From: Escherichia phage CL1
Length of the DNA stretch: 64,000 bases
Sequence record: OK040806
Strand: one strand, 5' to 3'
Both the position numbers and the translations under genes were made by a program. The notes under the pieces are model-generated. The model had not been told where the DNA came from and did no database searches. It saw only the letters and a program-made list of their open reading frames with translations. Below, piece after piece: positions 4,763-64,000 of this stretch (the stretch's first letter is position 1; every line of letters begins with the position of its first letter).

Positions 4763-5090
4763 AGCAAAAAAGCTGTCTTATGATGACATTATCTCAGGTG
4801 CTAAATTAGGTGTTGATAGTATCGGACAAGATGTTAAGCACGGGGACACAGTTATGTACTGTGACGACCGAAGAGGCAGAAGTGCAATCTTGTTTGGAAG
4901 AATTGTTTGCAAAATGCGAGGCAATTACGTTGTTGCAGACATGGATGTGAATGTCACACAAAAACTCGAAACAATTATGGATGCTAGTACACCATCATGG
5001 TTCCTGAATTGTATGCACACCTCTTCAGTCACAAAGGTAAGCGATAAGTTTTACGATATGTGGCAGAATGAGCAAATTTTCAAGATTTAA
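4755..5090 (+). CDS. hypothetical protein
   Basis: GTG start at 4755 with GGAG 8 nt upstream; first in-frame ATG far downstream. Confidence 0.4.
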   Translation: MSKAKKLSYDDIISGAKLGVDSIGQDVKHGDTVMYCDDRRGRSAILFGRIVCKMRGNYVVADMDVNVTQKLETIMDASTPSWFLNCMHTSSVTKVSDKFYDMWQNEQIFKI

Positions 5091-12194: not shown

Positions 12195-12681
12195 ATGAAT
12201 TACATGGAGATTAGGCCATTTGACACAGCTAATGGTGAAGGGGTTCGTGTAAGCCTCTTTGTAGCTGGTTGTAAGCATCACTGTGAAGGCTGCTTTAACA
12301 GGGAGTCTTGGAAGTTTAATGCTGGTAAAGAGTTTACTTATGCAAACCTCTACGGCATCATTAAGTTAATGGATGATGAGGCCATCAGTGGGTTGTCAAT
12401 ACTCGGTGGAGAGCCTCTGGATGACAGAAATATTCAAGAGGTTACCAACATATGCAAACGTATTAAAACAGTTTACCCAGAAAAGTCTATATGGCTCTGG
12501 ACAGGTTTTCAGTTACACGAAAAAAATTCACTTAGATGTGATGAAATATGTTGACGTGGTGATTGATGGTAAGTATGATTCATCTAAACCAACAGTTAAA
12601 CCTTATCGTGGCTCTGATAACCAAAACCTCTGGAGAAAAGAGTATGGGTGGCAAGGTGATTGTCAATGGCGAGCAGAATAA
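12195..12681 (+). CDS. nrdG: anaerobic RNR activating protein (radical SAM), interrupted by apparent +1 frameshift in an A7 run
   Basis: CKHHCEGC radical-SAM cluster motif and ILGGEP in frame 1 (12195-12554); NrdG-like C-terminus VDVVIDGKYD..RGSDNQNLW in frame 2 (to 12681); frames join if A-run 12520-12526 has one fewer A. Confidence 0.8.
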
Positions 12682-27036: not shown

Positions 27037-27417
27037 ATGGCTTATCGTGCACCGAAATTCATCAACAAAGACAACTTCCGCAACGCACTGGAGAAGTCAC
27101 TTGATGAAAAATTTAACGGCAAATTGATTGTTGTTCACGCATTCAATTTTAAGTATGATATTAACGGGAATAAAATCAACCATTACACGGCAACCATGTT
27201 AGATGGTACGCTATCAAGTGAAAAAGCCGTACTGAATGCACTTGCAGGACGTGGTAAAAACCTGATAAGATGCGATAAGAGACGTTATCAGGGTGGCGCA
27301 TATGGTTATGATGATGCTGTTTATCATCTTGAAAATATGGGCTATTCAGTGGAAAAAGCTGGAGTGTCTCAAATAATCGGCAGTGATGGTTATGTAACAA
27401 TCTTCAAAATTAACTAA
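27037..27417 (+). CDS. array ORF 2, hypothetical (126 aa)
   Basis: Conserved leader AAACTAGGAGATTCAAAAATG. Confidence 0.55.
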   Translation: MAYRAPKFINKDNFRNALEKSLDEKFNGKLIVVHAFNFKYDINGNKINHYTATMLDGTLSSEKAVLNALAGRGKNLIRCDKRRYQGGAYGYDDAVYHLENMGYSVEKAGVSQIIGSDGYVTIFKIN

Positions 27418-27505
27418 TAAAGTACTTTACAAGGGGCTTATAGTTCGATAAAGTAAGCCCCAGATAAAGAGCTTTACCACTAAATCCTAAATTGGAGATT
27501 CAAAA
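27418..27505 (+). repeat. type A intergenic cassette (copy 2)
   Basis: TTTACA-N17-TAAAGT promoter-like element overlapping hairpin GGGGCTTATAGTTCGATAAAGTAAGCCCC, then AGATAAAGAGCTTTAC and conserved leader. Confidence 0.6.
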
Positions 27506-27763
27506 ATGGCTATCATCAAAAACGTTGTAATTACTGCAAAGACTCGTGATGACGCTCGCATCATGGCGAAAAAGTTAGGCGGGAAAGTGGTTGACAACGG
27601 AAAACAATCTGCTGTAAGATGGGGCGTGAAGGCTGATAAAAAGTTAACCTTAAAACGCAGTTCAAATAACCTCTTTAAAGGTGTAAAATCACTCGGTAAA
27701 GTGAACGTGTTTACTAAACAAGGTTACAAAATGCACTTATCATTAACTGGCAATTTAATCTGA
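27506..27763 (+). CDS. array ORF 3, hypothetical basic protein (85 aa)
   Basis: Conserved leader; Lys-rich. Confidence 0.55.
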   Translation: MAIIKNVVITAKTRDDARIMAKKLGGKVVDNGKQSAVRWGVKADKKLTLKRSSNNLFKGVKSLGKVNVFTKQGYKMHLSLTGNLI

Positions 27764-27852
27764 TAAAGTACTTTACAAGGGGCTTATAGTTCGATAAAGT
27801 AAGCCCCAGATAAAGAGCTTTACTAACTAAATCCTAAACTGGAGATTCTAAA
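27764..27852 (+). repeat. type A intergenic cassette (copy 3)
   Basis: Near-identical to copy 2. Confidence 0.6.
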
Positions 27853-28365
27853 ATGAAAACTGTAGACGCTACCTTTGAAGTTGTAAAAGAAAAATTCACC
27901 ATTATTTATGAAGCTGTCAATTGCTTTGAAGCAAGCCATAATCTTGATAATTGGAAGTTTACAGATGACCATCAAGGCGGCGTGACGATTAAAAATCCTA
28001 ACTGTCAGAGTAATGAATTTAAATATGCAATCCCTTTGCATTACAGCCTTAAGCAGCTTTCAAGTGACTATGCAAAACAAGGCCGTGAGAATCCATCGAA
28101 AGAGGCTTACACGAGCTTACAGAAAGAACTAGAAAGGGATTTAGAGGCTTCAGAGTATAACATTGCCGCGAAAGTTGTAGATGCAAACGGTAGCACGGTT
28201 TTAGAGAGTTTTTATATTGGTTATGCTTTCGATTGGTGCTACAGTGACGGCGATGATTTAGATGACAGACTAAAAGAGGAAGTGAACAACGCAGACGCAG
28301 AATCTGAAGTATTAGAACGCTTGGAAGCATTAAAAGATTCAGTGATGAATATCTTTAAGAACTAA
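27853..28365 (+). CDS. array ORF 4, hypothetical acidic protein (170 aa)
   Basis: Conserved leader; acidic C-terminal region DGDDLDDRLKEEVNNADAESE. Confidence 0.55.
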   Translation: MKTVDATFEVVKEKFTIIYEAVNCFEASHNLDNWKFTDDHQGGVTIKNPNCQSNEFKYAIPLHYSLKQLSSDYAKQGRENPSKEAYTSLQKELERDLEASEYNIAAKVVDANGSTVLESFYIGYAFDWCYSDGDDLDDRLKEEVNNADAESEVLERLEALKDSVMNIFKN

Positions 28366-28453
28366 ATAGATTTCTTTACACGGGGCTAACAAGCGGATAT
28401 GATAGCCCCAGATAAAGAGCTTTACTACTAAATCCTAAACTGGAGACTCTAAA
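28366..28453 (+). repeat. type A intergenic cassette (copy 4, variant loop)
   Basis: GGGGCTA..TAGCCCC hairpin + AGATAAAGAGCTTTAC. Confidence 0.55.
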
Positions 28454-28750
28454 ATGAAATTATCGAATAAAGTTCGTGAAAACCTTAGTAAATTACTCAA
28501 CAAAATTGATTTTATCGAGACATCAAGAAATAATCATGATGTTATGGAATGGTTGCACGGCAAAATAAAAGGCCGTCGCGTAGTGATTTGCTTATGGAAT
28601 AGTTGCAGGGAGTATAAAAAGCCTGTATTGCAAATTAATGTTTATGATGATACTTTTAAAAGTCCTGTAAAGTCTAAAAGCGATTTATTAGAATCCTATG
28701 AGATAACTGTAAATGGCAAAGTATCACGTAAAGAGGAAACACCATGTTAA
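28454..28750 (+). CDS. array ORF 5, hypothetical (98 aa)
   Basis: Conserved leader. Confidence 0.55.
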   Translation: MKLSNKVRENLSKLLNKIDFIETSRNNHDVMEWLHGKIKGRRVVICLWNSCREYKKPVLQINVYDDTFKSPVKSKSDLLESYEITVNGKVSRKEETPC

Positions 28751-29076
28751 TGACTGGTATCACTGCAATCATTGCCATTTTCGCGCTATATAAGGCATAT
28801 AAAGCCTATAATCTAGCAAATAAGGCAATCACACAGCAAGTTAGTAATAACCTTGTAGAGAGCTTTCTAGGGCGTTTAAGTGATGAGCAAATAAAGCGGC
28901 TAGAGATGAGCTTCAGATATAAAGCGAAAACCTATCAGATAAGTGACATCTTCAAAGAGGATTTTCAGCTTGTCGATGATTATAACTCACTGATAAATGC
29001 TTTAAATATCAGTGACTTAAAAGATTATTACGCTGTAATTGTCCAAGAACTGAACAAACGAAAACAAAACTGTTGA
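28744..29076 (+). CDS. array ORF 6, membrane protein (110 aa)
   Basis: ATGTTAA overlap with ORF 5 stop; N-terminal TM helix GITAIIAIFALY. Confidence 0.5.
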   Translation: MLMTGITAIIAIFALYKAYKAYNLANKAITQQVSNNLVESFLGRLSDEQIKRLEMSFRYKAKTYQISDIFKEDFQLVDDYNSLINALNISDLKDYYAVIVQELNKRKQNC

Positions 29077-29162
29077 CACTGATTTTTAGATAACCTAAAT
29101 TACTAATCAACGGGAGGGATGACCTCCCACTAAACAAAGTCCTTAAACTAGGAGATTCAAAA
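29073..29162 (+). repeat. type B cassette (copy 1): promoter + GGGAGG..CCTCCC leader hairpin
   Basis: TTGACA 29073-29078, N17, TAAATT 29096-29101; leader AATCAACGGGAGGGATGACCTCCCAC; then AAAGTCCTTAAACTAGGAGATTCAAAAATG. Confidence 0.6.
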
Positions 29163-29435
29163 ATGTATACTACTAATAACGGTCGTACTCTAAATGTAAC
29201 TTTGCGCCACTATGTTAACGGCGTGATGCACTTTGAAGATTTACAAGCTGAACAACATATCTTAGATTGGCAACTTGCAGGACTACAAAAAACTGCTACA
29301 GGATACGGGAAAAAGATTCCAACTAGTTGGAAAGTATACTATGAAGGGCGTTTGCGCAGAATTTATCAAGATGTATACAGCAATAGCGCAACAAGTTACA
29401 TCATGGTAAAAGGTAAAAAATTACACTTAGTATAA
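29163..29435 (+). CDS. array ORF 7, hypothetical (90 aa)
   Basis: Conserved leader. Confidence 0.55.
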   Translation: MYTTNNGRTLNVTLRHYVNGVMHFEDLQAEQHILDWQLAGLQKTATGYGKKIPTSWKVYYEGRLRRIYQDVYSNSATSYIMVKGKKLHLV

Positions 29436-29521
29436 AGTACTTTACAAGGGGCTTATAGTTCGATAGAGTAAGCCCCAGATAAAGAGCTTTACTACTCAAT
29501 CCTAAATTGGAGAACTTAAAA
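29436..29521 (+). repeat. type A intergenic cassette (copy 5)
   Basis: Same hairpin and AGATAAAGAGCTTTAC element. Confidence 0.6.
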
Positions 29522-29926
29522 ATGGCTATTAATAACCGTGAGTTATCAATCTTAAAAGCACGTTTGACCGTTAACCGGATTAATGTTATTACGTCATCAG
29601 CACCGGACGAAACATTACACAACATTATTGGGAAGATTCAAAGTGTTATCTTAGACGTTGAAAGCGTAAAAAACTCATTGGCTGACGTTGCAGCAGGTAT
29701 CACGCTAGACGGTGCACAATATGAAATGGCTGACATGTTAGGCAAATCAAAGGTAATGAATAAAGAGCTTGATTTAAAAATGTTCCGTTTTGCCGTGAAA
29801 GTGTGGCTATCTGTCGAGTATGACGCAAATTTTGCAATCGCTGACTTTTTCGCAACATGGTTGCAACGTAATTTAACAAATTATGATTTTCGTGATATCT
29901 GTGACGCAATTTACGCAGAACTCTAA
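29522..29926 (+). CDS. array ORF 8, hypothetical (134 aa)
   Basis: ATG 29522 follows conserved leader; track start 29507 lies in the leader. Confidence 0.5.
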   Translation: MAINNRELSILKARLTVNRINVITSSAPDETLHNIIGKIQSVILDVESVKNSLADVAAGITLDGAQYEMADMLGKSKVMNKELDLKMFRFAVKVWLSVEYDANFAIADFFATWLQRNLTNYDFRDICDAIYAEL

Positions 29927-30948: not shown

Positions 30949-31182
30949 ATGCTTACAACCGTTTATCTTATCCTTTCTATTTGTAATGGTCATTCATGTG
31001 ATTTTAAAGGGCTTGAGGAGTTTACAGGAAGTAAAGAAAATGCCGTTCAGGTCTGTCAGATAGCAAGACAAGACTACCCCGCCAGTGATGATATACAATG
31101 TTACTTTAAGACAGAAGATGAAGAGGGTATCTATTTCGATAGTGTAGACGGGCAATATGAAATTATCATTGAAAAAGACTAG
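30949..31182 (+). CDS. array ORF 11, small protein with hydrophobic N-terminus (possible secreted/lipoprotein)
   Basis: MLTTVYLILSICNG; no standard cassette upstream, GGCCCACACAGGGCC hairpin instead. Confidence 0.4.
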   Translation: MLTTVYLILSICNGHSCDFKGLEEFTGSKENAVQVCQIARQDYPASDDIQCYFKTEDEEGIYFDSVDGQYEIIIEKD

Positions 31183-31271
31183 ACAAGCCTGATAAAAGTC
31201 TGTAAATTGTCAATCAACGGGAGGCGATAACCTCCCAACTAAACAAAGTCCTTAAACTAGGAGATTCAAAA
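31183..31271 (+). repeat. type B cassette (copy 3, variant)
   Basis: TAAATT + GGGAGGCGATAACCTCCC hairpin + conserved leader. Confidence 0.5.
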
Positions 31272-31613
31272 ATGGCTTATGTAACCGTAATTACCAATAA
31301 AGAAGATTCATCTTGGTCAACTCAAGTAAGCGATAAGATGTCACCTATGCAGTGCCTAAAATACTTTGAGCAATGGAACAAAGGCGAGGATACCAGCCCC
31401 TTTCAAGTGATGCAGATTATCCATACAGATAACGAAGGGAATAAAACTGTTTTGAATAGTGAGTACTATGCAACCAGATTCGAAACGAGAAGTAAAGCAA
31501 TGAAGCTCTTACGTGAATCCGGTTATTCTCATATTGCCGCGCTAATCTGGGATGACCTGCTAAAAAATCAGCGTATCAGCTACGTAAAACCTGAAAAAAT
31601 ATTCATCAGTTAA
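31272..31613 (+). CDS. array ORF 12, hypothetical (113 aa)
   Basis: Conserved leader. Confidence 0.55.
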   Translation: MAYVTVITNKEDSSWSTQVSDKMSPMQCLKYFEQWNKGEDTSPFQVMQIIHTDNEGNKTVLNSEYYATRFETRSKAMKLLRESGYSHIAALIWDDLLKNQRISYVKPEKIFIS

Positions 31614-31739
31614 TCAATAACTTACAAAAAACTTTTAAAAAAGTGTTGACAATACCCCTTGACATTGGTAACTTTGTTCGAGGGGGTTTATCTAAAAGGG
31701 ATTAACTTAAAAGATTCTTTATAGATAAACTTAAAAAAT

Positions 31740-31836
31740 TGCTTGCAATCAGATATCAAAACAAGTAAATTACTAATCAACGGTGAGGGAATGAACTTCC
31801 TCACTAAATAAAGTCCTTAAACTAGGAGATTCAAAA
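31740..31836 (+). repeat. type B cassette (copy 4, variant)
   Basis: TAAATTACTAATCAACGG + GAGGGAATGAACTTCCTC hairpin + leader; preceded by extra TTGACA element near 31647. Confidence 0.5.
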
Positions 31837-32367
31837 ATGAACAAATTTCAAGCTATCAACTACATTCGCTCAAATGCTGTAATGTCTAAGCCTGTTAAAG
31901 ATACCTATGAATTTCGCTGCAATGGGGTACACTTTGCAACCATTACCAAATCAGAAAACGGGGTTTATTACATTCATCGCCGTAATGTTTATACTGTTGT
32001 AGTCTCTCACTTTATGAAAGCTGTAGCGGAATTATTACCGTTATTCTTAGAGATTTACTTGGATGAGTGTAAAAACGTTCATAGCCACGTTAAAAACCTT
32101 TTAAATAGCTATAAAATGGCTTATGAACGTTCAATCAAGTCCTTAAACAAGTTCTATAAAGCCCCTGTAAATACTGTTTCAATGGCCTACGCTGCAAATG
32201 GTGAAAGAGTAAGACTATCCGATGTGGAAGATATCGAGCTTTACGACCATCGCCCTAACGGTTACTCTCAGACCCTCGGTGAAGGTTTAACGTTCAATAT
32301 CAAGAACTTAGAAAAAACTTTAAAAGATATTGAAAAAGATATTGACGAGACAATCAAAAATCTGTAA
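31837..32367 (+). CDS. array ORF 13, hypothetical (176 aa)
   Basis: Conserved leader. Confidence 0.55.
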   Translation: MNKFQAINYIRSNAVMSKPVKDTYEFRCNGVHFATITKSENGVYYIHRRNVYTVVVSHFMKAVAELLPLFLEIYLDECKNVHSHVKNLLNSYKMAYERSIKSLNKFYKAPVNTVSMAYAANGERVRLSDVEDIELYDHRPNGYSQTLGEGLTFNIKNLEKTLKDIEKDIDETIKNL

Positions 32368-55416: not shown

Positions 55417-56522
55417 ATGTTGACTAATTCTGAAAAAAGCAGATTTTTCCTTGCTGACCTGACTGGTGAAGTCCAGTCTATCCCAAATACTTATGGGTAT
55501 ATTTCCAACTTAGGTCTGTTCCGTTCAGCACCAATCACCCAAACTACTTTCCTTATGGACTTGACTGATTGGGATGTTAGCTTGCTTGATGCGGTAGACC
55601 GTGATAGCCGTAAAGCAGAGACTAGCGCACCTGAGCGTGTTCGTCAAATCAGCTTCCCAATGATGTACTTCAAAGAAGTTGAAAGCATCACTCCTGATGA
55701 AATTCAGGGTGTACGTCAGCCAGGCACTGCAAACGAACTGACTACTGAAGCAGTAGTACGTGCTAAGAAGCTGATGAAGATTCGTACCAAGTTCGATATT
55801 ACTCGTGAGTTCCTGTTTATGCAAGCTCTGAAGGGTAAAGTTGTTGATGCTCGTGGTACGCTGTATGCTGACCTGTACAAGCAGTTCGATGTTGAGAAGA
55901 AGACTATTTACTTCGACCTTGATAACCCTAATGCGGATATCGACGCTTCTATCGAAGAACTGCGTATGCACATGGAAGACGAAGCTAAAACTGGTACTGT
56001 AATCAACGGTGAAGAAATTCACGTAGTTGTTGACCGTGTATTCTTCAGCAAACTGGTTAAGCATCCTAAGATTCGTGATGCTTACCTTGCACAGCAGACT
56101 CCGCTGGCTTGGCAACAGATTACTGGTTCTCTGAGAACTGGTGGTACTGACGGCGTTCAGGCTCACATGAACACTTTCTACTACGGTGGTGTTAAGTTTG
56201 TCCAGTACAACGGCAAGTTCAAAGACAAGCGTGGTAAGGTTCACACTCTGGTGAGCATTGACAGCGTAGCGGACACTGTTGGTGTTGGTCATGCTTTCCC
56301 TAACGTTTCTATGCTGGGTGAAGCTAACAACATCTTCGAAGTGGCATATGGCCCATGTCCTAAGATGGGTTACGCAAATACACTTGGTCAGGAACTGTAC
56401 GTATTCGAATACGAAAAGACCGTGACGAAGGTATTGACTTCGAAGCTCACTCTTACATGCTGCCATACTGTACTCGTCCTCAGTTGCTGGTAGATGTTCG
56501 CGCTGACGCTCAAGGTGGCTGA
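55417..56522 (+). CDS. major capsid protein, with apparent -1 frameshift near the 3' end
   Basis: Strong host-like codon bias; track frame ends 56493 with implausible tail TVTKVLTSKLTLTCCHTVLVLSCW; -1 frame from about 56418 reads DRDEGIDFEAHSYMLPYCTRPQLLVDVRADAQGG to stop 56520-56522. Confidence 0.7.
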
Positions 56523-60333: not shown

Positions 60334-60974
60334 ATGAAAACAGAATCTAAAGTAATCAATGGTAAGAAAGTGAATATCGTTCTGCTTGGGGCAAGAGATG
60401 GTATTAAGATGTCTATGAAGTTGGGTAAAATTGTTGTTCCAACCTTTGCACAGATGCTATCAAGTCTGACTGATAAAGATAAGAAAGAAGCTCCAATGGT
60501 TCCATTTAAAGAACTTGTTGAGGCTTGTTTTGACAGAATTGAAGAAATTAACCTAGAAGAAATGGCTACCATACTATTTCAAGGGGCAACTGTTGATGAC
60601 TTCCCACTTAATATTGATACATACTTCCAAGCAAACTATGGTGAATTTATTGATTACTTAGCATTTGCGCTGGAGGCAAACTTCGGAAGTTTTTTTCGAA
60701 GCAAGCATTTTCAAAAGCCTAACTTCTCAGTAAACATGGGTAATACTCTACAGACACCACTAACTGATGCTGCTGTAGAGGCAACCTATGAAGAAGCAGA
60801 CGAGATGAAATTTGTGCTTGCTATTTATGGTATGGAAGGGTGTAAAGAAACACTTGACCAACTCTTTGCTATGACATTCTCTGATTTATTATCATTGAGA
60901 CAATTTCTTGAAATTCAGAGGTCGTATAAAGAGGAAATTGCTTACAACGAACTTAGAAGAGCAGGAAAAATGTA

Positions 60975-60975
<1 letters not shown>
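60334..60975 (+). CDS. putative tail assembly chaperone
   Basis: 213 aa immediately upstream of tape measure with overlapping stop/start; assignment by position. Confidence 0.35.

Positions 60976-64000
<3,025 letters not shown>

Follow-up and report, generated by a model that had tools for sequence, protein, structure and literature searches.

A homopolymer under-call as the very probable cause of the split major capsid gene in Escherichia phage CL1

The question raised by this locus is whether the major capsid protein gene of Escherichia phage CL1 is really read in two frames near its 3' end, or whether the frame break exists only in the deposited sequence. The gene (HK97-fold, Pfam Phage_cap_E) occupies 55417..56522 on the plus strand of the window, by which we mean the whole stretch of 64,000 nucleotides analysed, and it stands last in the order S49 protease, decoration protein, capsid protein. 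Only with one A added at 56414-56417 does it form an intact gene of 368 codons.

Two frames at the end of the capsid gene

As written, the ORF spans 55417..56493 on the plus strand and, as read from the window sequence, encodes 358 aa ending in ...EYEKTVTKVLTSKLTLTCCHTVLVLSCW*; the peptide VLTSK is part of this frame-0 tail. In the -1 frame, the 3' end of the gene reads KDRDEGIDFEAHSYMLPYCTRPQLLVDVRADAQGG* with the TGA at 56520-56522, and the peptide DEGIDFEAHSYMLPYCTRPQLLVDVR is part of this alternative C-terminus. The two frames meet at GAAAAG (56413-56418), confirming a frame change near the end of the gene at the position given in a preliminary description made from the sequence alone. Within this junction lies an A4 homopolymer (56414..56417, plus strand), the site of the missing base, which is A5 (GAAAAAG) in relatives. 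When one A was added to the run, a single ORF of 368 codons was obtained, as that description had foreseen, with 34 codons remaining 3' of the junction. Thus the first 334 codons of the ORF as written are genuine capsid sequence and its last 24 are out of frame, and the true C-terminal coding segment (56418..56522, plus strand) consists of 34 codons and the TGA in the -1 frame relative to the annotated ORF. Upstream of the junction the capsid ORF shows no further damage, and at the protein level it is identical to that of a functional relative.

Codon usage switches at the junction, which had been noticed in the preliminary description and was reproduced quantitatively here. The geometric mean of relative adaptiveness was 0.22 for the frame-0 tail and 0.78 for the -1 tail; reading the upstream gene off-frame gave a mean of 0.24, and its in-frame 24-codon windows gave a mean of 0.77. 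When the codon reference was built from three neighbouring structural genes, the frame-0 tail gave 0.34 versus 0.74 for the -1 tail. Natural variation among close relatives follows the same frames: upstream of the junction, frame-0 third positions account for 40 of the 44 variable sites, and downstream of it, -1-frame third positions account for all of the variable sites, although these number only three.

We compared both readings with known capsid proteins. The repaired 368-aa protein is identical (100%) to the major capsid protein (MCP) of phage mio (QIG66649.1) and matches Phage_cap_E, so that the earlier assignment of the gene as a major capsid gene stands. Residues 1-366 of the repaired protein aligned with the Bas63 capsid protein solved by cryo-EM (PDB 9ncf_A) with few differences (~99% identical), and this alignment takes in the whole -1-frame tail. 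In an alignment of homologues reaching down to ~26% identity, the -1-frame tail was conserved throughout, with C352, R354 and P355 nearly invariant, and no homologue in this alignment aligned with the frame-0 tail. Against the Phage_cap_E profile (PF03864), the repaired reading scored 264.7 bits and covered profile positions 2-328 of 329, whereas the reading as written scored 227.1 bits and covered positions 2-301 of 329, indicating that only the repaired reading is a full-length member of the family that includes the conserved C-terminal segment. Given its conservation to ~26% identity and its presence in the Bas63 structure, the -1-frame tail is the true C-terminus, as proposed earlier. The related phages' capsid proteins had been suggested as a check on this proposal, and none of them ends like the annotated frame. 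Sequence conservation therefore speaks against the frame-0 tail being a protein. In summary of its likeness to the Felixounavirus MCP (Bas63 gp8, PDB 9NCF; PF03864, HK97 fold), the CL1 protein is 368 aa long after repair, covers the full profile, and is encoded in a locus with the same order of protease, decoration protein and capsid protein; it differs in that, in the reading as written, the last 34 residues are missing and 24 unrelated residues stand in their place.

Length of the A-run in relatives, assemblies and reads

The length of the run was then compared among relatives. A5 together with one continuous ORF was found in all 31 relative loci that were fetched and read, and A5 was likewise present in all 9 metagenome contigs and in 15 of the 16 contigs from IMG/VR (24/25 in all); the one IMG/VR contig with A4 is as long as the Si3 record. 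In addition, 56 further phage records, among the matches listed, all span 91 bases against the 90-base query. A4 was limited to C600M2 and CL1, Salmonella phage Si3, and one of two copies in the GE_vB_BS record MG969407. The Si3 A4 is present in both GenBank KY626162 and its RefSeq copy NC_041922, and the exact truncated 358-aa protein was found only in C600M2 (C600M2_7) and CL1 (CL1_145).

The GE_vB_BS record (MG969407.1, labelled 'UNVERIFIED') holds the capsid region twice (~31032-32135 and 69588-69677), once with A5 and once with A4, so that homopolymer calls from a single DNA preparation are seen to be inconsistent. Note that this record is a draft from MinION R9.4 reads only, described by its authors as a map and not as accurate sequence (PMC5923466). 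GEC_vB_BS (MW006475), which seems to be the same phage sequenced anew, is one base longer here, as A5 would give. As a separate observation on Si3 (KY626162), its tail fibre gene (27333-29676) is annotated in two pieces and is one gene in Felix O1; this tail fibre region is 2 bp shorter in Si3 and ST11 than in Felix O1. The split, which ST11 shares, may be real or an error common to both.

The window is of Felixounavirus type and can be aligned along its entire 64,000 bases to Escherichia phage C600M2 (OK040807.1), with an identity of 99.903%. Judging from this identity, the truncated protein common to both (CL1_145) and the number of features up to its end, it probably represents the final 64 kb of the CL1 record (OK040806). 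C600M2 and its sibling CL1, reported to be 99.92% identical, come from one study in which both were sequenced on the Ion Torrent S5, with a coverage of 6,746x for C600M2 and only 37x for CL1 (PMC8759396). Between the window and C600M2 there are nine one-base indels (4765, 21417, 26283, 33061, 38847, 40825, 42467, 44072 and 60690), and 9/9 are located in homopolymers, the run types being A6/A7, T6/T7, T5/T6, G3/G4 and T4/T5. The two sequences also differ by 53 substitutions, all of which are inside one 210-nt block, with zero in the other ~63.8 kb. Since the sibling genomes differ outside this block in homopolymer length only, these differences are better regarded as measurement noise than as divergence, indicating that homopolymer lengths in these assemblies are unreliable. 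Against three more distant relatives, the window differs from all three at the runs at 12520, 21417, 32662, 42467, 56414 and 60690; this comes from a filtered screen, because a first indel list was swamped by paired gaps in divergent intergenic DNA.

The capsid site has the features of a homopolymer artefact, in that a mononucleotide run changes length (A4 vs A5) on a platform prone to such errors (Ion Torrent S5), and further homopolymer-only discrepancies exist in the same assembly, namely the nine indels, a split nrdG and a T-run in the tail assembly chaperone gene. It resembles the miscalls known from Ion Torrent, 454 and MinION R9.4 sequencing in several respects: an Ion Torrent assembly is one base off within a mononucleotide run, further discrepancies are confined to homopolymers, additional conserved genes are split, the reads are ambiguous at the site, and a nanopore draft of a relative has the same change, which is not seen in the later GEC_vB_BS sequence. 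On the other hand, it differs from typical cases because the capsid run is only 5 long, whereas most of the other discrepancies are in 6-7-base runs, and because the under-call is common to two sibling assemblies and hence would be systematic.

Evidence closer to the reads was obtained from the Logan contigs of SRR15840093. Specifically, contigs were linked to the study's reads through look-ups of the decoration protein and the tape-measure protein, whereas look-ups of a 111-aa ORF and of the protease led only to widespread relatives. Contig SRR15840093_129 showed 100.000% identity to the window over 11,412 nt, and contig SRR15840093_407 showed 100.000% identity to C600M2 over 6,865 nt, with the chaperone T-run as its sole difference from the window. 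Because every other relative is at most ~98.8% identical, SRR15840093 represents the reads of the C600M2/CL1 study. Contig 129 ends with '...GAATACGAAAA' at window position 56417, and contig 407 begins with 'AAAAGACCGTG...' at window position 56414. A de Bruijn assembler halts where its graph branches. Exactly four As are common to both contig ends, the signature of a branch between reads with A4 and reads with A5 or longer; a branch between A3 and A4 would leave only three common As. The preliminary description had proposed a read pile-up at 56410-56420; as examined through the Logan contigs, that is, from contig ends rather than individual reads, the reads do disagree on the length of the A-run, and the break does not give the majority length. 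Apart from this, the far end of contig 129 (12,323 bp) was projected to the first base of an A6 run at 44095-44100, its last 911 nt being unseen, and if this projection is right, A-runs sit at both ends of the contig.

Explanations for the frame break

It is very probable that the deposited A4 is a homopolymer miscall, and that the true sequence is GAAAAAG in an ordinary gene. Under this explanation, the genome would carry five As (GAA AAA GAC) in an uninterrupted 368-codon capsid gene; Ion Torrent sequencing would mis-measure the length of the homopolymer, and the assembler would fix the under-call as four As. Translation would then be ordinary, and the 358-aa 'hypothetical protein' would be an annotation consequence of a one-base deletion error. 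We infer A5 rather than A4 as the true state in CL1. Two facts stand against a miscall. The C600M2 assembly (at 6,746x) and the CL1 assembly are both A4, so that either the error is systematic (context- or flow-dependent) or the allele is real in the lineage, and Si3 (KY626162) likewise has A4. Of the two alternatives offered in the preliminary description, an indel error is thus supported, but a programmed frameshift is not, considering the continuous ORF in relatives, the lack of a stimulator at the junction and the loss of the conserved C-terminus from the frame-0 product.

The programmed frameshift would require that A4 is genuine and that the full-length capsid protein is made by a -1 shift at GA_A_AAG through re-pairing of tRNA-Lys from AAG to AAA, giving truncated and full-length isoforms. 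We consider this very unlikely. The A_AAG tetramer is in the correct register at the junction and, of all tetramers, shifts most readily in E. coli (PMC4066793), the A4 allele appears in three independent records, and T7 10A/10B offers an earlier example of a capsid gene with a -1 shift close to its 3' end (mentioned in PMC11482910). However, the shift rate of tetramers without a stimulator is ~0.15% (background, 0.11%), and even a strong pseudoknot brings A_AA.G to no more than 5.6% (PMC4066793). The Bas63 capsid has T=9 with 535 MCP copies (PMC12609058), and a T=9 capsid requires 535 full-length copies. The junction does not form a heptamer, since the P-site GAA cannot re-pair on CGA. A stimulatory element, looked for as a downstream hairpin or pseudoknot and as an upstream Shine-Dalgarno-like sequence, was not found at the capsid junction: the 82 nt of RNA downstream have a folding energy of -21.1 kcal/mol, whereas shuffled versions average -17.5 (z = -1.07) and 26 out of 200 of them equal or exceed the native stability, and GGAGG, AGGAG or GAGG does not occur within 20 nt upstream. 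In addition, it is the deletion that turns GAA AAA G into the A_AAG motif, within flanks that are the same in the A5 relatives, where no shift is needed. The two-frame layout is present in no independent metagenome-derived assembly, and it is not conserved, as the 31 loci and 24 of the 25 contigs carry the single A5 ORF and the 56 listed records are consistent with it. Furthermore, the frame-0 product lacks the nearly invariant C-terminal residues.

What the CL1 capsid gene shares with T7 gene 10A/10B is a change to the -1 frame a few dozen codons short of the 3' end. In T7, the frame-0 product is a complete functional capsid protein, the shifted product carries a dispensable extension, and the arrangement is conserved. 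In contrast, the CL1 frame-0 product is truncated and non-conserved, and the relatives have one ORF. It is not plausible that a capsid gene whose product is needed in 535 copies per particle relies on a site of this kind. The capsid/tail module of the close relative Bas63 is uniformly essential (PMC11482910), and after five rounds of plaque purification the source phage yielded lysates of high titre, with normal heads under the electron microscope (PMC8759396); both facts speak for the miscall. A variant in which A4 is real in the C600M2/CL1 lineage and in Si3, and in which an efficient stimulator-independent -1 shift at GAA_AAG produces an isoform with an altered C-terminus, has only a very small chance of being right. 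If A4 were real, an essential and very highly expressed structural gene would rely on efficient tetramer-only frameshifting, which would be surprising and finds no support here. Transcriptional slippage was also considered and rejected, as four As are too few. Runs giving appreciable slippage of RNA polymerase are far longer than this.

Two further explanations concern the material that was sequenced. A lysate that mixes defective A4 and wild-type A5 genomes, or a recent real A4 deletion kept by complementation, would account for the branch at the A-run in the independent read assembly as well as a miscall does. Nevertheless, we regard such a mixture as improbable, because five single-plaque purifications remove non-viable genomes and because an A4 mutant would need to have risen to the majority on separate occasions in C600M2, CL1 and Si3. 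Homopolymer-only disagreement at eight other sites in the same read set, with no substitutions outside the 210-nt block, also points to measurement noise and not to population structure, and the far end of contig 129 was likewise projected onto an A6 run, at window position 44095. That the genome is non-viable or degraded, with the capsid gene as a true pseudogene, is hardly conceivable: the ORF is indeed broken in the record, but the rest of the gene is undamaged and its protein is identical to that of a functional relative, and the culture history contradicts this explanation, since the phage was propagated, forms plaques and has heads that look normal under the electron microscope.

With a miscall as the preferred explanation, the case is also one of data hygiene. 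The capsid protein of C600M2, CL1 and Si3 (including NC_041922) is deposited as a truncated 358-aa protein, which enters protein databases and clusters. The same assemblies carry a split nrdG, and a mis-sized chaperone run in the window hides a genuine programmed frameshift.

Other sites in the window

In relatives, the tail assembly chaperone is encoded just before the tape-measure gene by a 132-aa ORF and an overlapping 79-aa ORF in the -1 frame, which are joined at the canonical heptamer T_TTT_TTC. In the window, a T7 run at 60690-60696 (context 60681-60702) hard-codes a fused 213-aa product (ORF 60334..60975), and this exact fused product is not on record. The run is T6 in C600M2, in Logan contig 407 and in all other relatives checked. 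Judging from this comparison with C600M2, with the same phage's read contig and with all relatives checked, the T7 is another homopolymer miscall. The relatives' T_TTT_TTC, located near the end of the PF21822 chaperone ORF, corresponds to the G/GT-type -1 frameshift of tail assembly chaperones. Unlike the capsid junction, this is a genuine conserved recoding site, in a different gene, that is obscured in the window by an extra T.

The gene for the anaerobic ribonucleotide reductase activase (nrdG) has A7 at 12520-12526, compared with A6 in relatives, and therefore runs to 119 codons instead of 161. The split is common to C600M2, in which two CDSs are annotated there, and an intact 161-aa NrdG was found in 6 of 6 independent contigs. 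Either this A7 is a miscall of the same type, or it is real and tolerated, nrdG being a non-essential gene. At 4765, the window has a 111-aa ORF whose exact product occurs in many independent contigs, so that at this site C600M2, and not the window, looks like the odd one.

The 53 substitutions relative to C600M2 are located at 63446-63655, inside a Dit-like gene (63203..64000), and cause zero amino-acid changes. This gene is the tenth feature when counted from the capsid gene (CL1_145), which agrees with a total of 154 features. All 71 codons of this block are the single commonest E. coli codon for their amino acid (CTG, GCG, AGC, ATT, ACC, GGC and so on), Ser, Arg and Leu codons are exchanged by multi-base swaps, and the GC content is 45% versus 34%. 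The block looks like back-translated, codon-optimised or synthetic sequence and not like natural divergence. The window ends exactly at the stop codon of the Dit-like gene.
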